Shown: positions 1-37,918 of the stretch, in pieces
Layout of the letters: every line of letters starts with the position of its first letter
Numbering within the stretch: position 1 is the stretch's first letter
Origin: a virus
Lineage: Duplodnaviria > Caudoviricetes
Direction: 5' to 3' (one strand)
Length of the DNA: 37,918 nucleotides
IMG/VR virus record: IMGVR_UViG_3300017777_003696
Span: 1-37,918 of that record
Program-made: the position numbers and the translations under genes
The notes under the pieces: model-generated
Told to the model about the DNA's origin: nothing
Seen by the model: only the letters and a program-made list of their open reading frames with translations
Database searches by the model: none

Positions 1-34
1 GGCGGCAGCCCTGGCGGCAGCCCTGGCGGCAGCC
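1..34. repeat. Left copy of 34-nt terminal overlap, built from a 12-nt tandem unit (GGCGGCAGCCCT)
   Basis: GGCGGCAGCCCTGGCGGCAGCCCTGGCGGCAGCC is identical to 37885-37918. Confidence 0.97.
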
Positions 35-378
35 AACTCGTCGCGCGTCGCTTCGCCTACGGCGAAGGCTCGCGCGACTCGTATGCTCTCCCGAGGACGC
101 TTGTCCTCGGGGAATTCCTTTTCATAGATGTGAAGGACGGATTCGGCACAGTCGCACGCGAAGAGACGCGCCAGGCGGTCGCGATCTGCTTCCTGTTCCG
201 GCATTACGCCACGAAGCGCCCAAAGAGCATCGTCGATGCCGTTGCTTTCGAGAATGACGCCGAAATCAATCGGCTTGTCGGTGGGGAATCTGCTCCCGAG
301 GGTGCGGAGCAATTTGGACCAGCCTTCAGTGCAAGGCTGATGTTTGCGGAGGATGGCGAGGGTAATCGTGAGCTTCAT
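1..378 (-). CDS. 5' part of Imm5-like/Ala-repeat phage protein spanning the contig junction (not in ORF track)
   Basis: Hand translation from ATG at 378: MKLTITLAILRKHQPCTEGWSKLL...LESNGIDDALWAL...RLFACDCAESVLHIYEKEFPEDKRPRESIRVARAFAVGEATRDELAAARAAARAAA. The frame is open to base 1. The A-x-x-C-A-E-x-V-L and P-x-D-x-R-P-R motifs are typical of Imm5-like phage proteins. Confidence 0.85.
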   Translation of the reverse strand, partial: MKLTITLAILRKHQPCTEGWSKLLRTLGSRFPTDKPIDFGVILESNGIDDALWALRGVMPEQEADRDRLARLFACDCAESVLHIYEKEFPEDKRPRESIRVARAFAVGEATRDELAAARAAARAAA

Positions 379-387
379 GGATCGAAT

Positions 388-750
388 TCAGTCGTGGATG
401 TTGGGGCGAACTGCGGCGGGAGAAATGACGCGGCCATCGGCACGATCCTGAAGGCTGATCACACGCTGCTGACTGCGGGCGATGTCCTGGGCCAGCTCGA
501 AGAACGAGACGCCACCGGACGGATCGCGCGGCATCGGCGCCGGCTCCGGGTTCCAAAGCAAATCCGCCGACTGGGCGAGTTCGCACGCGCGGGCGTAGTC
601 TTCGCCGCGAATCATGAAGTCGATAGTGCGCGTCTTTTCGCCGTCACCGGCAAATTCGAACGGGATGCGCGCCTGAACGATAGCGGCGGCTAATGCGGTG
701 GCCTGGCGCTCTGTGAAACAGAGAATTGGACGGCAGTATGGCAGAGGCAT
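388..750 (-). CDS. Hypothetical protein, first gene of the leftward (early) operon
   Basis: In-frame ATG at 750 (MPLPYCRP...) of track ORF 388..936. The longer start runs through the AT-rich promoter region. The ORF ends 10 nt before the next ATG. Confidence 0.65.
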   Translation of the reverse strand: MPLPYCRPILCFTERQATALAAAIVQARIPFEFAGDGEKTRTIDFMIRGEDYARACELAQSADLLWNPEPAPMPRDPSGGVSFFELAQDIARSQQRVISLQDRADGRVISPAAVRPNIHD

Positions 751-820
751 AATCGTGATCCTGGGCGTTAGAGCTTCCACGGATGGCGTCAGTGGAGCGG
801 CCCGGAGAATTCCGGACCGC
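751..820 (-). promoter_or_regulatory. Structured 5' leader of the early operon (two hairpins)
   Basis: On the minus strand: GCGGTCCGGA-ATTC-TCCGGGCCGC (820-797), then GCTCCAC-TGACGCCATCC-GTGGAAGC (798-773), then CACGATT directly before the ATG. Confidence 0.55.
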
Positions 821-926
821 GCGAATACATACGGACATAATTTTCCCGAACACGAGAAAAATCTGTCAGTGGGTATCAGCGTGTCACTGGTAAGATTGTC
901 ATTGAAATATGTCCGTAGGCATACAC
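821..926. promoter_or_regulatory. AT-rich divergent promoter region bracketed by a 10-bp inverted repeat (operator-like)
   Basis: TACGGACATA at 830-839 and TATGTCCGTA at 908-917. TTGTCA/TTGAAA -35-like hexamers at 896-907. Lies between the divergent arms. Confidence 0.6.
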
Positions 927-965
927 GTTCCATCACGTCAGGTCTGCACGTCCCGAGTTATTCAG

Positions 966-1006
966 ATGCCCGTCGATCCTTCACCGGACGGCGGGCGTTC
1001 TGTTTT
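966..1006 (+). terminator. Intrinsic terminator ending a short rightward transcript
   Basis: ATGCCCGTCG (966-975) pairs with CGGCGGGCGT (989-998) with two G-U pairs, plus inner TCC/GGA. Followed by TCTGTTTT. Confidence 0.7.
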
Positions 1007-1011
1007 CGGAG

Positions 1012-2935: not shown

Positions 2936-3268
2936 ATGATCGAATTCACAAAGGAGAATCGCCGCGAGACGTGGTGTTCCTGGCACGATGACATGAGCCT
3001 GAACCGGCGCCAGGCGATGACGCTGGCGGCGGATGCGAACGCGACGAAGAACAAGCTGCTTCGGGAAGCGGTGGAAGCGCACCTGGGCCGGCTTCCTACG
3101 GACAAGGCGATTCATGAGCTGGTGACGGAACGCCGGGAGCCGGGCAGTGCGGTGATCTGGGTGTGCTGGGCGGACACGGCCATTGCCATCCGAACGGATT
3201 GCACGGCGAAGGTGAAGGATCGGCGCTACCTGCTGACGTGGTTCTGGAAAACGCTGCCAAAACGATGA
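2936..3268 (+). CDS. Hypothetical protein
   Basis: Fills the gap between neighbours, with an ATGA overlap to the next gene. Confidence 0.7.
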   Translation: MIEFTKENRRETWCSWHDDMSLNRRQAMTLAADANATKNKLLREAVEAHLGRLPTDKAIHELVTERREPGSAVIWVCWADTAIAIRTDCTAKVKDRRYLLTWFWKTLPKR

Positions 3269-7777: not shown

Positions 7778-8041
7778 ATGTGCTTCAAATCCAAATCTTC
7801 TTCTTCACCGGCTCCCGCGCCGGCCGCTCCCGCCGCTGTGTCGGCTCCTTCCGTGGTTGCGCCGACGAAGCCACCGGCCGCTGTGCCTCCCGTGACTGAA
7901 CGCACGGTGGAAGTTGAAGCGGCGTCGCGACAGACGCGCGTGGACGCAAAGAGGCGGAAGGGGATGCGTTCGACGCTCCTGGCCGGCGAGACGGGCGGCT
8001 ATCAGGCGCCCGGTGAAGAGAAGAAAACTCTGCTGGGCTAA
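7778..8041 (+). CDS. Small pre-portal virion assembly protein (T7 gp7.3-like position)
   Basis: GGAGG RBS. MCF start, Pro/Ala-rich linker, RRKGMRSTLL and C-terminal KTLLG, typical of this gene in podoviruses. Confidence 0.8.
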   Translation: MCFKSKSSSSPAPAPAAPAAVSAPSVVAPTKPPAAVPPVTERTVEVEAASRQTRVDAKRRKGMRSTLLAGETGGYQAPGEEKKTLLG

Positions 8042-8056
8042 CCGGAGATCATCACC

Positions 8057-9748
8057 ATGGCATCGAAGAAGAAAGACGAACTGGCGGAACAACTGGTGGC
8101 GCGACACAACGCGCTGAAGTCGGATCGCGGGACGTGGGATGTGCTTTGGCAACAGATCGCGGACTACGTGATGCCACGGAAGAGCCAGGTGACGACGAAG
8201 AAGACCGAAGGTGTCGAGGGCTTCACGGATGACATCTACGACATGACGGTGATCCGGTCGAACATGACGCTTGCGGCCGGACAACTGAACTACGTCACGC
8301 CGGCAACTGATCGCTGGTTTGCATTCGAGCCACCGGAAGAGATGAAGGAAGCGGGCGGCGACGCGGCGGCGCGCTGGTATCAGCTTTGCACGGAAATCGC
8401 GTTCCGTGAGTTGGCCCGGTCAAACTTCTATCTCGAAATTCACGAGCTGTTCCTGGACCGGGGCGGCTTCGGCACGTCGATCATCTTCGCCGAAGAGGGC
8501 AAGCGGGTAACGCTGAAGTTCGAAAACTGGGAGGTGGGCACGTATTCCATCGCTGAAGACGATGAAGGCGTGGTGGACACGGTGTTCCGCGAATTCGAGC
8601 TGACGTGTCGCCAGGCCATTCAGAAGTTCGGCATCGAGCACTGTGGCGAGACGATTCAAAAGTGTTACGAAGAGCGGAAGCCGACATCGTTGGACAAGAA
8701 GTTCACGTTCATTCACGCCATCTTCCCGCGTGCGGACGATCAGCGGAAGCCGGGCAAGATCGACGGCCCGAACAAACCCATCGCGTCCGTTTACGTGTCG
8801 GTGACGGACAAGGTTTGTGTCCGGAATGCCGGATACGACGAAGCGCCGGCCGCTGTCTCGCGCTTCCTGAAGTGGGGCAAATCGCCATACGGCTATTCGC
8901 CCAGCATCGAGGCGCTTCCCACCGTCCGCCAGGTGAACTTCATCGAAAAGCAGATGGACGCGCTGGCGGAACTGGCCGCGTTCCCGCGTATCCTGATCCC
9001 GGATGGGCTCGAAGGTGACGTGGATCTTCGGAGTGGTGGTGTGACTGTGTTCGATCCGAACAACGTGAACGCCGTGCCGAAGGAATGGGCGACACAAGGG
9101 CGCTACGACATCGGCCTTCAGCGTGTCCAGGCGAAGCAGAAGCAGATCGAAGAGGCGTTCCATGTGACGCTCTTCAAAATGTTTGCCGAACGGGAAAAGC
9201 AGATGACGGCGCGCGAGGTGATCGAACGCGTCCAGGAAAAGCTCGTTCAGTTCTCGCCGACGTTCGCGCGCATGACGACGGAGCTGCTGAATCCGCTGCT
9301 CGAACGCGTGTTTGGCATCCTCTTCCGTGCTGGCAAATTCCCGGATCCACCGGAAGAAGTGTTCGTGGTCGGGCCCGATGGCGTGTCGCTGCCACTGCCA
9401 CAGGTGGCTTACACGTCGAAGATCGCGCTTGCGATCAAGGCGCTCGAAAATCAATCGTTCCTTCAGTTCGTGGAAGTGGTGGCGCCGTTGGTTCAGGTCG
9501 ATCCGTCCGTGATGGACGCGCTGAACACGGACAAGGCGATGAAAGGGCTGGCGCGCAATCTGTCGCTGCCGGCCGATTGGATTCGCACGGACGAAGAGAT
9601 CGGCGCCATCCGCCAGCAACGTGCCGAAGCGCAGCAAGCCCAGGCGGCGGCTGAACAGGCGAAGCTCGTCGCTGGCGCGGCGAAGGACATGAGCGCGGCC
9701 GATCCGGCGATGAAGAAGCTCGCGCTGGCCGGGATGGTTCGGACGTGA
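8057..9748 (+). CDS. Portal protein (head-to-tail connector, T7 gp8/BPP-1-like)
   Basis: 563 aa. SNFY...DRGGFGT, SPYGYSP, QMTAREV and ELLNPLLERVF motifs, Gln/Ala-rich tail. GGAG RBS. Confidence 0.95.
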   Translation: MASKKKDELAEQLVARHNALKSDRGTWDVLWQQIADYVMPRKSQVTTKKTEGVEGFTDDIYDMTVIRSNMTLAAGQLNYVTPATDRWFAFEPPEEMKEAGGDAAARWYQLCTEIAFRELARSNFYLEIHELFLDRGGFGTSIIFAEEGKRVTLKFENWEVGTYSIAEDDEGVVDTVFREFELTCRQAIQKFGIEHCGETIQKCYEERKPTSLDKKFTFIHAIFPRADDQRKPGKIDGPNKPIASVYVSVTDKVCVRNAGYDEAPAAVSRFLKWGKSPYGYSPSIEALPTVRQVNFIEKQMDALAELAAFPRILIPDGLEGDVDLRSGGVTVFDPNNVNAVPKEWATQGRYDIGLQRVQAKQKQIEEAFHVTLFKMFAEREKQMTAREVIERVQEKLVQFSPTFARMTTELLNPLLERVFGILFRAGKFPDPPEEVFVVGPDGVSLPLPQVAYTSKIALAIKALENQSFLQFVEVVAPLVQVDPSVMDALNTDKAMKGLARNLSLPADWIRTDEEIGAIRQQRAEAQQAQAAAEQAKLVAGAAKDMSAADPAMKKLALAGMVRT

Positions 9749-10047
9749 GCCAGGAACAGAAACAGGCTGAAGCGCAGTTGCGGCACGAACGCCTGTGCCT
9801 GGCCTACGCTCGCGTGCTGGGCCAGGACGGCGCCAGGTCGGAAGATCAGGCGCTCGTGATGGCGGACATGGAACATCGCGGCTACATGCACCGGAGCACG
9901 ATGGTTCCGGACGCTGGCGGCGGTCAGTGCGAACATCGAATCTCGTCAGCCGAAGGACAGCGCATCTTCGTCCTGAATACGAAACAGCTTATCCGGGGCG
10001 CGAAGCTTTCGGAAAAGAAGAAACCCGTAACCGTTAAGCGAAAATGA
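9745..10047 (+). CDS. Conserved post-portal small protein (Bbp19-like)
   Basis: AYARVL...LVMADM...AEGQRIFVL pattern. GTGA overlap with the portal stop. Confidence 0.75.
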   Translation: MSQEQKQAEAQLRHERLCLAYARVLGQDGARSEDQALVMADMEHRGYMHRSTMVPDAGGGQCEHRISSAEGQRIFVLNTKQLIRGAKLSEKKKPVTVKRK

Positions 10048-33705: not shown

Positions 33706-34299
33706 TCACTTCTTCTTCTTGGGCTTCTTCGGTTTCTTGTCGGTGGACGCGGGCGGCGTTCCGCCTTCCCCGTCCGTGCCGGCTGCGGGCGCCTCGAACT
33801 TCAGGGTGTCGCCACCCTTTGGCTCGGCGCCTTCGCTTTTCCCGTCATCGAGCGGAAGAAGGCGCTGCTGACGTTCGCCGTTCGCATATGCCTCCGTCGC
33901 TTCGACCATTTCGCCAAGAAGTTCGGCGTGCTTCTTCGAACACTGCCGGCGCTGTCCGTCTTCGCCTTCAGCGGCATCGTCAAACTGGAACAGGGGCGTC
34001 GTCATCCGATGGGCGCCACCTGTCGCGTCGAGTTCCTTGCTGAAGACGATGGACGCGGAGCGCGTCCCTTTCTTCGTGTAGGAAAACGACACGGCCAGGA
34101 TGATGATGCCCTTCTGGTAGGCTTGGCCCAGTTCCAGGATGTTCACCACAACGTCCGCCAGGGACTGAAGGGTGGTGTCGAATTTCTTCAGCGGCGCTTC
34201 GTGCGCCCTGATCTTGCGTTCTTCGACGGCTTGGTGGCCCTGGACTTCATGGTGGAATTCCACGGCCGATTCTTCGCGTATGACTTTGGTGACTTTCAT
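33706..34299 (-). CDS. Hypothetical protein
   Basis: In-frame ATG at 34299 (MKVTKV...), downstream of the nuclease stop. Lys-rich tail. Confidence 0.75.
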   Translation of the reverse strand: MKVTKVIREESAVEFHHEVQGHQAVEERKIRAHEAPLKKFDTTLQSLADVVVNILELGQAYQKGIIILAVSFSYTKKGTRSASIVFSKELDATGGAHRMTTPLFQFDDAAEGEDGQRRQCSKKHAELLGEMVEATEAYANGERQQRLLPLDDGKSEGAEPKGGDTLKFEAPAAGTDGEGGTPPASTDKKPKKPKKKK

Positions 34300-34340
34300 G
34301 AGTTGATCTGCGGTTTCGAGTTCCGGCGTGATACCGGAAA

Positions 34341-35297
34341 TTAGTAGGGGCGAGACGCGTAGCTGGCGCCGGACTCGCGGATGGCGGGCGGCGGCGGCAC
34401 GTCCGCCGTGATGCCGATGCCACGCTGGGGACGCGGATCGTAACCCTTCAGGAAGCGCCAGATCGCGGCCATGTGTGTGAACGCCTCGTAAGCGGCGGCG
34501 ACTTCCTCGCTGGAATACCACACGCCTTCAATCCGGCCCGGCTCCGTCGTGCTGATAAACAGATTGAAACCGGCGACGAAATCGCCGGGACGCGGCACGA
34601 TGGAATAGTGTCCGCCGTGATACGCTCCGATCTGCATTAGCTGGGTGTCGTATGCCTTCACTGGCCGGCCCGGCTTCGTCTTTCGGGTTTTCCAGTCGCC
34701 GAATCCGATCCCACGTTTGCACGTCATGGGAAGGTCTCCCGTGCCGGCGTATCCGTGAACCAGGTTCACCACTTTGACTTCGTGGCCGGTGGGGTGGATG
34801 TCGTGTTCACGCACGAACGAGCGGATCGGTTCGATGAACGTCTTCATCGGGAACCGCTCCTTCAGCTCGGGAAGAAACACCTGTTCGTCTTCGTTGTAGA
34901 GATCGCCGGACAGAACAAGCTCGGCGGCGCGGTGGATTAGTTTGCCGGCGTCCGCTGCGTCTTCCACCTGCTGGAAGGCGCGTTCACATATGTCGGCGTG
35001 AAGCTCGTCAAACGCGCGATGCGCGATGTCGAGCACGGCCACGGCGATGTCCGCGTGTTCGCGACCATTCGCGATCACTCCGATGCGGCGGTGGAATTCG
35101 CTCGTGACCTGTTCCATTTTCCAGTCCGTCAGTTGCGGCTTGTCCAGGATGTCCAGGATAGTCGTGACGGATGGGAGAAGGCCCAGCTTGCGCGCGTCCG
35201 TCAGGGACGTGGCACGCGATTCGCCGGGCTTCGATTTGTTGGGGACGGTGTGGCACGAAGTGCCATCCGGCCGATACCAGTGCGCTGATTTTTTCAA
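34341..35297 (-). CDS. PD-(D/E)XK exonuclease (phage recombination nuclease)
   Basis: HWY, LPSVTTIL, KP.L..W, G..IH, YAGT.DL, DWKT and Q.GAY motifs. TTG start. Confidence 0.88.
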   Translation of the reverse strand: MKKSAHWYRPDGTSCHTVPNKSKPGESRATSLTDARKLGLLPSVTTILDILDKPQLTDWKMEQVTSEFHRRIGVIANGREHADIAVAVLDIAHRAFDELHADICERAFQQVEDAADAGKLIHRAAELVLSGDLYNEDEQVFLPELKERFPMKTFIEPIRSFVREHDIHPTGHEVKVVNLVHGYAGTGDLPMTCKRGIGFGDWKTRKTKPGRPVKAYDTQLMQIGAYHGGHYSIVPRPGDFVAGFNLFISTTEPGRIEGVWYSSEEVAAAYEAFTHMAAIWRFLKGYDPRPQRGIGITADVPPPPAIRESGASYASRPY

Positions 35298-35341
35298 GGT
35301 GATGAGTTGGGTGGATGTCGATGGTTACGGGATGGTGGCGA

Positions 35342-36082
35342 TCAGAACGGAACGTCTTCGTCCACGTTGCCGGCGCCGGGCGTGCCCTGGTTCGCGGCCT
35401 TCTTCTCGGCTTCCTCCTTCGCCTTGCGGTCGGCTTCGGCCTTCTCGGCGGCGGCTTTCTCTTCAGCTTCCCGCTTGGCCTTGTCCTGGGGGTCTTCGTT
35501 GCGGACCTTCGCCGTATCCGCCAGCTTGCCGGTGTTCAACAGCCGGGAAATGCGAAGGATGTCGCTGGCCGTGGTGAACAGGTCGCGCGAGAACGCTTGC
35601 GATTGGAAGTAATCGAGCGGCGCCTGTTCGTTGGCTTCGAACGCGGACTTGATCAACTGACAGGCGTTCGTGATGGCGTTGCCGATGGCCTGGCCTTCGG
35701 CGCCCTGGATGCCGGCTGACTTCTGCGCGGCGGCGGGCGTTGCGGCCTGGCCCGGCTTGGCATCGCCGACGATCTGAATCGTGGCCTTGTCGCCGATGGT
35801 GATCTGCTGGGTGCCCTTGTATTCGGTTCGGCTGATGCCTTTTCCGGAGACGTGGACAACCTTGCCGGCGTAGCGCGACGGGTCGGTTCCGAAGAAGTTT
35901 CCGAGGATGCAGATCCCGGAGCTGTGCGGGTCGGTGAGGATGGCGGTGTTCGGCGCTTTGCCCTGGCCGCGTTTCGGGTCGGACAGGACGCATTCGAAAT
36001 CGTCGTTGATCCAGACTGCGTTTTGGCGGTCGCCGGGAGACATTTCCAGGATTTCGCCGATGGTGATCAGTTTCGTAGGCAT
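35342..36082 (-). CDS. Single-stranded DNA-binding protein (OB-fold, putative)
   Basis: OB-like beta pattern (GKVVHVSG...EYKG..QITI) and SSB-type acidic tail VDEDVPF. Adjacent to the exonuclease. Confidence 0.75.
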   Translation of the reverse strand: MPTKLITIGEILEMSPGDRQNAVWINDDFECVLSDPKRGQGKAPNTAILTDPHSSGICILGNFFGTDPSRYAGKVVHVSGKGISRTEYKGTQQITIGDKATIQIVGDAKPGQAATPAAAQKSAGIQGAEGQAIGNAITNACQLIKSAFEANEQAPLDYFQSQAFSRDLFTTASDILRISRLLNTGKLADTAKVRNEDPQDKAKREAEEKAAAEKAEADRKAKEEAEKKAANQGTPGAGNVDEDVPF

Positions 36083-36125
36083 ATTACTTTCGTATTGATG
36101 TTTTTAGTGCAGGGGACAGTTGTAG

Positions 36126-36217
36126 CGGCTGGCGTCAGTGAGAATCCGGAGTGGGAAACCACTTCGGCCAATCGTGGAAGCGGATCAGCTCTTCGGAGCG
36201 GTCCGCTTCTTCGTTTT
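36126..36217 (+). ncRNA. Candidate antisense small RNA opposite the early operon
   Basis: CCGGAGTGG-GAAA-CCACTTCGG (36146-36167) is followed by a UUCG-capped terminator. The G-U pairs and tetraloops work only on the + strand. TTGATG at 36095-36100 is a possible -35. The 5' part matches 780-794. Confidence 0.55.
36177..36217 (+). terminator. Intrinsic terminator on the strand opposite the surrounding genes
   Basis: GAAGCGGATC-A-GCTC-TTCG-GAGC-GGTCCGCTTC (14 bp, C(UUCG)G loop), followed by TTCGTTTT. Confidence 0.7.
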
Positions 36218-36463
36218 CGGAACTAACGGGAACGGTGTCCGGGTCTTCGTCTGCTTCACGAAGGTTTCCGTCACCGGATCGAAGCCGGCCTGATGCGCGA
36301 ACTTCACAAGGCGGTCGATGGCGACGCCGTAGGACGTGCCACGGCTCTGCCAGGTCTTCAGGTCCGCCATGGTGTGCGAGTCGATGAACGGACCGCCACA
36401 GAGGCGAACGCGGGGCAAGTCGCCGATCATGTTGCCGTGTTTGGGCTGGATGGGTTCAGGCAT
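36185..36463 (-). CDS. Small hypothetical protein, possibly ribbon-helix-helix DNA-binding
   Basis: Start at 36463 or 36478. TMADLKTWQSRGTSYGVAIDRLV resembles the helix-G-x-S-helix of RHH proteins. Weak assignment. Confidence 0.55.
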   Translation of the reverse strand: MPEPIQPKHGNMIGDLPRVRLCGGPFIDSHTMADLKTWQSRGTSYGVAIDRLVKFAHQAGFDPVTETFVKQTKTRTPFPLVPKTKKRTAPKS

Positions 36464-36677
36464 CGGGTTGGGTGGCATTGTGCTCCGCTGCCTCTTGCGG
36501 GGTCGGCAGGTAACGGCGGTGCATTTGGGACAGGACGCCTTCCAGCGTCGTGACGGTGGCGGCGAACACCTTCTTCTCGGCGTCGAGAGTCAGGCATTCG
36601 GGCGTGGTTCCTTGGAACGTCTCGGCGGGGCTTCCCTCGCGTTCGACGGATACGGTGACGGTGATCTTAGTTTTCAT
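36456..36677 (-). CDS. Hypothetical protein
   Basis: ATGA overlap with the upstream gene. Confidence 0.7.
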   Translation of the reverse strand: MKTKITVTVSVEREGSPAETFQGTTPECLTLDAEKKVFAATVTTLEGVLSQMHRRYLPTPQEAAEHNATQPDA

Positions 36678-36943
36678 TCGGCAAATTTGCGTGCGGCGTG
36701 GCCCAGCTTCTCAGGGAGAACGCCAGCCATGCCGGCGAGCATGGAAACGGCGCCGGCCTTTACGGTGGCATAAAGATTGCCGGACTCGTTGGGCGCGGTG
36801 AAGGAATCGTTCAGCGACACGACGCGGCGCATCTCGAATTCTTCGACGTGAAGCGGCACGCCTTCAGGCGGCAACGCTTCGGTGATGCCTTCGCCGACGT
36901 GGACGAAGGCCGTCACGATGATTTCGATTCGGACGTTTTTCAT
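36674..36943 (-). CDS. Hypothetical protein
   Basis: Starts 3 nt after the upstream stop; operon packing. Confidence 0.7.
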   Translation of the reverse strand: MKNVRIEIIVTAFVHVGEGITEALPPEGVPLHVEEFEMRRVVSLNDSFTAPNESGNLYATVKAGAVSMLAGMAGVLPEKLGHAARKFAE

Positions 36944-36946
36944 GGT

Positions 36947-37825
36947 TCAGCGGACGACGGTTTTGGCTTCGCGCCAGTGGCGGACGCCAGGGAGGGACTT
37001 GCCTTCGGCCATCGTCTTCAGCGCGGCCTTGATCGCGGCGTTGTTCGGCGACAGAAGCACGAACATCGGGTGGGCTTCGCGAAGGGCTTCGATGTCCGTC
37101 ACCTCGAACTTCAGTTCAGAGCCAACGGCGACGCCTTCGATCTTCTTGGCGACAGGGACGACGGCGCTGGCTGCTTTGGCGGACGCGTCGGCGGCGTCCT
37201 GGCGGCGTTTTTCTGCCTCCTGGCGCTCGCGGTCTTCGCGTTCGATGCGTTCACGCTCGGCGCGTTCCTGGGCTTCCTTCAGCTCTTGCTCGCGCTTGGC
37301 GCGGCCTTCCTCGGAACAGACACGATCAGCGGCGGCGCGTAGCTTGTCCTGCTCTTCGCGCGCTTTGCGCTGGCGCTCGCGCTCTTTGGCTTCGGCCTTC
37401 TCGCGTGCTTCACGCTCTTTCCGTTCGGCGTCGAGACGGATGCGTTCCTGTTCCTGCCACGCCAGGCGCCGGGCTTCCTCTTCCTTGCGCTTCTGTTCGG
37501 CCTGGAAGGATGCCAGGAGTCCGCCGATCCGCTTCGCCTCGGCTTCCAGGTCGGCGGTGAGAGTGCGCGCGATGGAATCGATCTTCCGGCCGGCGTCCAG
37601 GATAGGCGCCTTCACGGCGTTGCGCGTCTCTTCGATGGTGCGCGTGAAGTTCGCCAGGTCTTTCAGGAACGTGGCGGCACGCTGGGCTTGGTCCGGGGAC
37701 GTGATCGCTGTGCCCTTGCGGGCAAGCGTCAGAAGGTGATCGCGGCGGGCCAGGGCTTCAGCCTGGGCGCTGATCTTGTCCAGCTCGAAGGCCGGCGCGA
37801 CGATTTCGAGGACGGTGGTTTCCAT
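36947..37825 (-). CDS. Coiled-coil phage protein (Gp157/Gam-like architecture)
   Basis: IEETR..VKAPILDAGRKID, a long E/R/K/A coiled coil, and C-terminal FEVTD...IKAAL...LPGVR. Confidence 0.8.
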   Translation of the reverse strand: METTVLEIVAPAFELDKISAQAEALARRDHLLTLARKGTAITSPDQAQRAATFLKDLANFTRTIEETRNAVKAPILDAGRKIDSIARTLTADLEAEAKRIGGLLASFQAEQKRKEEEARRLAWQEQERIRLDAERKEREAREKAEAKERERQRKAREEQDKLRAAADRVCSEEGRAKREQELKEAQERAERERIEREDRERQEAEKRRQDAADASAKAASAVVPVAKKIEGVAVGSELKFEVTDIEALREAHPMFVLLSPNNAAIKAALKTMAEGKSLPGVRHWREAKTVVR

Positions 37826-37827
37826 GG

Positions 37828-37918
37828 TTAGGAAGCTTCTCCGTCGCTGGCCGGCGTGACGAAATAATGGCGGTATTTTTTCGCGGCGGCAGCCCTGGCG
37901 GCAGCCCTGGCGGCAGCC
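37828..37918 (-). CDS. 3' part of the junction-spanning Imm5-like/Ala-repeat protein
   Basis: Reads AAARAAARAAA-AKKYRHYFVTPASDGEAS-stop (TAA at 37830-37828). In frame with 1..378 after merging the 34-nt overlap. The stop lies 2 nt before the next ATG. Confidence 0.8.
   Translation of the reverse strand, partial: AAARAAARAAAAKKYRHYFVTPASDGEAS
37885..37918. repeat. Right copy of 34-nt terminal overlap
   Basis: Identical to 1-34. Confidence 0.97.

Follow-up and report, generated by a model that had tools for sequence, protein, structure and literature searches.

A conserved element, probably an RNA, opposite the SSB leader in a group of phages and its candidate trans-acting pairing with early gene leaders

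The + strand of the window, the whole stretch of DNA analyzed here and a complete virus record of 37,918 bases (37.9 kb) with direct terminal repeats, carried an element of two hairpins and short boxes between an RHH-like ORF and an SSB gene, and relatives of this phage carried it at the same junction. That this is a real, conserved and clade-specific RNA element is very probable. We also find it reasonably probable that the element is a trans-acting antisense RNA of about 90 nt, which would block translation of the phage's own early genes. This reading, first put forward from the letters of the window, was strengthened by a conserved strand polarity, by complementary words private to each genome's own leader, by better pairing with own than with foreign leaders, and by enrichment of the boxes at early gene starts; two relatives, L024 and L012, stood as exceptions.

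A PHROGs scan of 47 ORFs gave the window phage a podovirus-like layout, with terminase, portal, capsid and tail genes on the + strand, and methyltransferase, helicase, primase/helicase and exonuclease genes on the − strand. No integrase, repressor or antirepressor families were found among these 47 ORFs, and the phage is probably lytic; many of the ORFs carry no annotation. Sequencing runs containing this uncultured phage were mostly from freshwater, with close relatives in one soil run, and one relative was a 10-kb contig binned to an Opitutaceae genome, a single binned contig that gives a weak hint at the host. The SSB assignment was based on 28 Foldseek matches with E values of 0.001 or below, most of them to OB folds (SSB/RPA among them), and on 55 homologues. 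The adjoining small ORF may be RHH-like: its structure model had a pLDDT of 67, and many RHH proteins ranked among the best structural matches, yet the best Z was only 3.5 and Foldseek gave no match, thus leaving the RHH fold without confirmation there. The start of the first early ORF at 750 was backed by a homologue beginning at the same Met position, and no PHROG or Pfam family matched this ORF.

Several other features of these genomes were recorded. The second early gene (window 1-378 and 37860-37918, − strand) had an Imm5-like domain and a short tandem Ala-rich repeat across the genome ends, and an Ala-repeat ORF of L043 (2862-3320) resembled it. A 110-aa ORF near the start of the late operon (2936-3268, + strand) was kept in most relatives at 29–35% identity; its N-terminal half was RHH-like by eye, and it is a possible late regulator. 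In about 530 nt at 1010-1540, neither a convincing gene nor any match to Rfam or to a tRNA was found; at the equivalent place, between their early and late operons, L009 and L014 each carried a tRNA gene. At 902-1010 (+), downstream of a late-direction promoter (TTGAAM, 16 nt, nAnnnT), came a short structured leader and then a strong terminator (z −4.3), an arrangement that might be an attenuator like lambda pR'/tR' or a second small RNA; a hairpin with shared 5' sequence was kept in four relatives (L007 7105-7260, L010 4885-5030, L011 6320-6480 and L014 5500-5660, all on the − strand). Identical 10-mers formed an inverted pair at 830-839 and 908-917, flanking the divergent promoter region, and relatives had CCGTA-containing repeats in the early promoter; both are candidate operators for RHH-like proteins.

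Table 1. Features of the element, its neighboring genes and its predicted targets in the window.
Feature	Position	Strand	Evidence or remark
Second box 2 target	364..370	−	codons 3–5 of second early gene
First early ORF, 120 aa, function unknown	388..750	−	predicted main target
Box 2 target CACGATT	751..757	−	−7 to −1 from first early ATG
Leader hairpin B	776..796	−	11-nt loop 781-791
Leader hairpin A, AUUC loop 807-810	797..820	−	fold
SSB-like gene, N-terminal OB fold and acidic C-terminal tail	35342..36082	−	Foldseek, homologues
TTGATG, possible −35 hexamer	36095..36100	+	TTGAN at like position in relatives
Box 1 seed	36125..36140	+	11 perfect pairs; 17-bp duplex with leader loop
Predicted small RNA, ~90 nt: 5' seed region, hairpin I, box 2, intrinsic terminator	36126..36217	+	fold, relatives; 5' end predicted
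GAGAAU linker, minor box	36140..36145	+	could meet AUUC loop of leader hairpin A
Hairpin I, 9 bp, GAAA tetraloop	36146..36167	+	equivalent hairpin of other sequence in relatives
Box 2, core AATCGTG	36168..36176	+	between both hairpins; most conserved part
Intrinsic-terminator-like hairpin, UUCG loop, U tail	36177..36217	+	overlaps RHH-like ORF stop
RHH-like small conserved ORF	36185..36478	−	directly upstream of element on mRNA strand; alignment

Both hairpins of the original prediction, the GAAA-capped one and the C(UUCG)G one with a U-rich tail, were in place (Table 1), as were all strings that it had quoted for the element and the leader. Folding of both strands gave −46.0 kcal/mol (z −4.4) for the + strand and −35.8 kcal/mol (z −3.7) for the − strand. 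The location in the gap upstream of SSB held for most of the element; the terminator hairpin runs into the end of the RHH-like ORF, over its stop codon (36185-36187) and final codons, so the element is not wholly intergenic. The −35-like TTGATG was present, with no −10 hexamer behind it, and no sigma-70 promoter was called in 34000-37918. In 11 of the 14 elements, TTGAN preceded the folded segment at a distance of 27–34 nt, a weak promoter sign because the region is TG-rich, and across the 14 elements no −10 was conserved behind TTGAT.

The principal match to the early leader, between 36126-36140 and 780-794, comprised 14 of 15 positions and was the sole one among 684 windows of 110 nt on both strands of the genome. 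Its exact 11-mer is ordinary, since the 150-nt element region had eight other exact matches of 11–12 nt elsewhere in the genome; AATCGTG (36170-36176), identical to 751-757 as had been claimed, occurred 10 times in the genome, and each of the two words taken alone was within chance. The target of box 1 (784-794) lay in the loop of hairpin B and its 3' flank, at −44 to −34 from the first ATG, and the predicted pairing had an energy of −9.2 kcal/mol after correction for accessibility (−29.6 raw). Box 2 was only partly open in the window fold, and by itself contributed only −1.9 kcal/mol. A third resemblance, of GAGAAT-CCGGA to 805-816, survived in part: the strings were there, and the CCGGA portion was in stems on both sides and outside the top three contacts. 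GAATC was found in five of the ten elements checked, and [AG]ATTC was there in all four of those with a leader, and in none of the five leaders whose element was without GAAT[CT].

Relatives were found by alignment-based scans, at loci with SSB identities of 24–51%; with the single SSB protein as query, no relative was found in viral contigs, where an exact 20-nt pattern also had no matches. Once duplicates were merged there were 15 distinct RHH–SSB sequences (the window, L006, L007, L009, L010, L011, L012, L014, L023, L024, L025, L029, L037, L039, and L043), some of which are near-sister pairs. An antisense-strand hairpin with a U- or AU-rich tail was present in 14 of the 15, at SSB identities of only 33–51%, and the full order of hairpin I, short box and terminator in 13. 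Box 2 (ATCGTG) stood beside the terminator in 11 of the 15 loci, occurred as a variant in L009 and L006, and was missing from L037; wherever it was present, 1–5 nt separated it from the terminator of antisense polarity. Stem sequences differed between relatives while box 2 stayed, and the peptide tail beneath the stems was likewise not conserved. All 14 elements folded better on the antisense strand, with 2–7 G–U pairs there versus 0–2 on the other strand, and the U tail was on one side only; fold z-scores were alike on both strands in the five elements tested, with L014 better on the mRNA strand, and the strand difference is partly due to composition. RNAalifold on a MAFFT alignment gave only five consensus pairs because stems of unequal length misalign, and therefore no column-wise covariation statistic is claimed.

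The element appeared confined to this group. Distant SSB loci lacking the RHH-like gene had no match to R1, a mostly sequence-based model which matches its 13 training sequences by construction, so that its matches within this set are circular. On five whole records of element-less relatives, R1 produced only matches with E values of 0.06–0.8, in which the full architecture was absent on inspection. Two degenerate pattern scans returned 84 and 120 stretches, and R1, applied to 79 and 80 of them, recovered only five known phages. The three marker genes occurred together only in known loci when all 217 later loci were checked by HMM, and RHH alignment against 401 genomes of the order gave one match, the known bin. 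In L012 the RHH-like gene abutted SSB, with no gap and no element there; this phage, whose early region includes the antirestriction gene ArdA (7887-8402 and 9750-10001 for the two sites), was noted as a natural loss case. Antisense terminators before SSB with a similar loop and no box 2 were seen in L037 (1003-1080, −) and L044 (~500-560, −), and may be a reduced or ancestral form.

Covariation with the early leaders provided an argument for pairing in trans. Nine genomes had both the element and a first early gene after a divergent promoter region (L023, which starts inside the early region, entered the box count only). All nine had an exact complement of 9–12 nt between the element and their own first leader (−75 to +15 around the first ATG); in the shuffled-control comparison suggested with the original prediction, the same length was reached by 0–5 of 100 shuffled elements, and among antisense decoys, which were other gene starts of the same locus, by 0–1 of 10–43. 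Pairing was scored as accessibility-corrected helix energy in seven lineages, leaving out one of each sister pair (L007, L043). Own pairs averaged −9.2 and cross pairs −5.7 kcal/mol (9 of 5040 permutations), and the sum of the top three contacts also separated own from cross pairs (2 of 5040), p-values that are optimistic because the leaders and per-genome boxes were picked after part of the matches had been seen.

The words differed between genomes, and came in a different order at the element and leader loci. The window had an 11-mer at −44 together with a 7-mer at −7, L014 had a 12-mer at −17, L007, L010 and L011 had 9-mers at −13 or −12, and L029 had an 11-mer at −66. In L009 box 2 was altered and its complement altered to match, and a private 10-mer from the hairpin I loop had its partner 8 nt before the ATG; the flanks of box 2 varied among L014, L023/L024 and L029, and own targets matched each. 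The main contact was at −17 to −4 in L007, L010, L011 and L014, which had the box 2 complement also in a hairpin loop near the leader 5' end, and near the leader 5' end (52–66 nt upstream of the ATG) in L029 and L043, where the start codon offered a second, weaker contact.

The aim at the early-operon leader was upheld in that the first leader had a complementary word in 9 of 9 genomes, and the target set proved wider than one leader. The box 2 complement preceded three and five early genes of L023 and L024, one of which encodes a DUF932 protein, and L024 had tandem box copies. Over ten loci, early start windows totaling 6,365 nt contained 22 copies of the complement and no reversed copy, against 31 copies in 133,812 nt of same-strand sequence outside them; ACGATT was the first of all 6-mers seen in the early start windows of seven lineages, four of which carry it. 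The first early genes were wholly different among relatives (ArdA in L012, DUF932 in L023/L024), and the leader tags stayed. Three contigs of relatives from the soil run tracked the window leader to the last base of the box, then diverged into another gene start. A repeated cassette of terminator, small hairpin, box 2 target and ATG was observed in L023 (1-125, 1150-1255) and L024 (5730-5850, 6870-6985), which suggests modular capture of early genes plus tag.

Loci keeping one partner without the matching boxes, named beforehand as contrary evidence, were largely not seen, and the exceptions were L012 and L024. The former has a single CACGATT, 35 nt ahead of the ATG of an early gene, and no element in 88% of its genome. 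The element of L024 pairs weakly with its own first leader, as 91 of 206 own windows do equally well, and better with the leader of L009, which retains an older box 1 target. A wobble-flank test on 20 matched word pairs gave 3 G–U of 40 in the proposed orientation versus 2.7 expected, that is no excess, and 21 of 40 versus 10.7 expected in the opposite orientation, nine of them from one column in which targets keep an A; the kept A may reflect a tag function on the mRNA itself, masked by the RNA. Of eight sequencing runs covered, all as contigs, the one RNA run gave none with the phage; contigs show neither strand nor ends, and the result is neutral.

The antisense RNA that we favor would start at a promoter within the SSB leader, run opposite to the early operon and stop at a terminator of its own. 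It would show seeds at its 5' end or in the loop of hairpin I, plus the linker before the terminator, and these would pair with loops and open stretches in the leaders of early genes and occupy the place where ribosomes land. The contacts predicted in the window are those of box 1 with the leader loop and of box 2 at the start codon of the first early gene, and again of box 2 inside the second early gene (Table 1). The purpose would probably be timing, with the variable first-wave genes turned off once the replication genes are read, and variable first-wave genes with lasting tags fit such a switch. Loop-exposed seeds would suit pairing without a chaperone; a search of 151 genomes belonging to the same family as the Opitutaceae bin did not turn up PF17209 (Hfq), the host being indicated by one binned contig. 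An additional cis effect on the RHH–SSB junction is possible. The cis-antisense action on the SSB leader that had been proposed is doubtful because an RNA beginning at about 36126-36130 would reach neither the start codon of SSB nor the ~44 nt that precede it; only a 5' end upstream of ~36100 would bring that codon into the duplex. More tentatively, in a phage with no recognizable integrase or repressor, one Hfq-independent RNA could be the off-switch of a whole first-wave regulon, which new early genes would join through a 7–12-nt start tag, RNA and tags co-evolving into a private code for each phage.

The shared words could instead act on the mRNA strand as a protein site (operator, enhancer or processing site), with the hairpin an unrelated terminator of stray antisense transcription. 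All 22 copies are in mRNA orientation, many targets read CACGATTA with a last A left unpaired by the RNA, and L012 holds a copy without the element; an enhancer is plausible because SD-like 4-mers occur in just 7 of 53 early starts, whose leaders are C/A-rich. Several 9–12-nt words covarying per genome and differing in order at the two loci are nevertheless hard to reconcile with one protein site. Also against it are the closeness of box 2 to an antisense-polarity terminator and the position of the copy before SSB, ~60–90 nt from the ATG and unlike most targets, and we regard this reading as unlikely.

Quite unlikely, too, is a cis antisense RNA in the manner of P22 sar or lambda OOP, acting at the RHH–SSB junction only (by RNase III cleavage or uncoupling of SSB), with the leader matches due to duplicated leader modules or C/A-rich composition. 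The position recalls that of sar in the arc–ant gap, the element overlaps the 3' end of the upstream gene, and any such transcript is fully complementary to that part of the mRNA; the C/A richness of the leaders would be in keeping with it, and in L024 the sequence past the terminator also matches leaders. A cis RNA, however, has no need for a conserved box or for covariation with a site 2.5–5 kb off, and composition-like decoys from other starts rarely match as well.

There is little to recommend CACGATT or the 11-mer as a double-stranded DNA site, either an operator of the RHH-like protein or the −10 of activator-dependent promoters. The adjoining RHH-like gene is a weak pointer to it, L024 has tandem copies, and a CACGnT −10 is plausible in the host because the putative late promoter reads TTGAAA-16-CACGTT. 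The site is nevertheless no palindrome, none of 22 copies is reversed, and of the 22 CACGAT listed one has TTG at 16-nt spacing and none TTGA; the distance to the next ATG ranges from 1 to >50 nt, one copy lies inside a coding start, and the terminator and private words are left without explanation. CACGAT as a sigma-70 −10 was discarded for want of a −35. The box as an alternative Shine–Dalgarno sequence was discarded because, among eight 16S genes belonging to the same family as the Opitutaceae bin, AATCGTG occurred in one, and not at the 3' end.

It is improbable that the RNA pairs with leaders to activate, or to control termination by opening hairpins, rather than to block ribosomes: box 1 would melt leader hairpin B in the window, the strongest contact of L029 and L043 is far upstream of the ATG, and some L023/L024 boxes follow a terminator and small hairpin, but a contact covers part of −17 to −1, the ribosome binding region, in the window, L007, L010, L011 and L014, and the L023/L024 boxes are downstream of those terminators.

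The candidate antisense RNA has the marks of a trans-acting base-pairing sRNA: an intrinsic terminator of its own, a conserved single-stranded seed (box 2 being only partly open in the window fold), and a seed that is complementary to translation starts and covaries with them; the wobble-flank test gave no support to the last of these. The original prediction had not recognized it as C4 or CI, and no Rfam family matched: the window had no hits at gathering score, with only Xoo2 at E 6.6 over the element and none over the leader, and eight relative loci had only tRNAs. C4 (phages P1 and P7) and CI (phage P4) are cut out of the transcript that also contains their targets, and lie on the same strand. 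In immI, C4 controls ant expression (PMC8201110); no icd or antirepressor gene was found among the 47 ORFs of the window by PHROGs, most early ORFs carrying no annotation. The element resembles C4 and CI as a phage RNA controlling phage genes by short separate boxes, and differs in lying 2.5 kb from its target with its own terminator and on the opposite strand, since terminator polarity and G–U pairs put the RNA opposite the early mRNA. Arc is an RHH protein, and OOP overlaps the cII 3' end. The sar RNA lies in the arc–ant gap and blocks the ant ribosome site (PMC7968456; PMC12197685), and OOP is antisense to cII (PMC12197685). Like these, the element would be an antisense RNA situated in the space that follows a small gene; unlike them, as they act in cis by full complementarity, its contacts would be short, in trans and covarying, and the predicted RNA does not include the SSB start codon. 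Short boxes are used similarly by RNA II of pAD1 par, in which direct repeats DRa and DRb from opposite strands give complementarity that blocks ribosome binding (PMC4147584). That system is a plasmid toxin–antitoxin with convergent overlapping genes and one target, whereas the element has loci apart and several targets, with no toxin identified.

A literature search that lacked most subscription papers found no paper on such an RNA in this group or as a class. The phage antisense RNAs described in the sources cited above (PMC12197685; PMC8201110; PMC7968456) mostly act on lysogeny or on one overlapped gene. If the proposal is true, a trans RNA directed at the starts of the phage's own first genes would end the early phase without a protein repressor, a different use. 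The natural own and foreign pairs would allow a cheap reporter test and offer a small set of orthogonal RNA–leader switches. A parallel is found in the start-associated sequences (SAS) of Cluster K mycobacteriophages, where a 13-bp word precedes phage start codons in one orientation and overlaps an SD-like sequence; its authors left room for an RNA or protein that binds it, and the passages on it name no partner RNA (PMC3203893). The box of the element is, by contrast, unrelated to the anti-SD and has a candidate partner RNA in the same genome, and the element points to a kind of partner that could be tested for orphan start-associated repeats of other phages.
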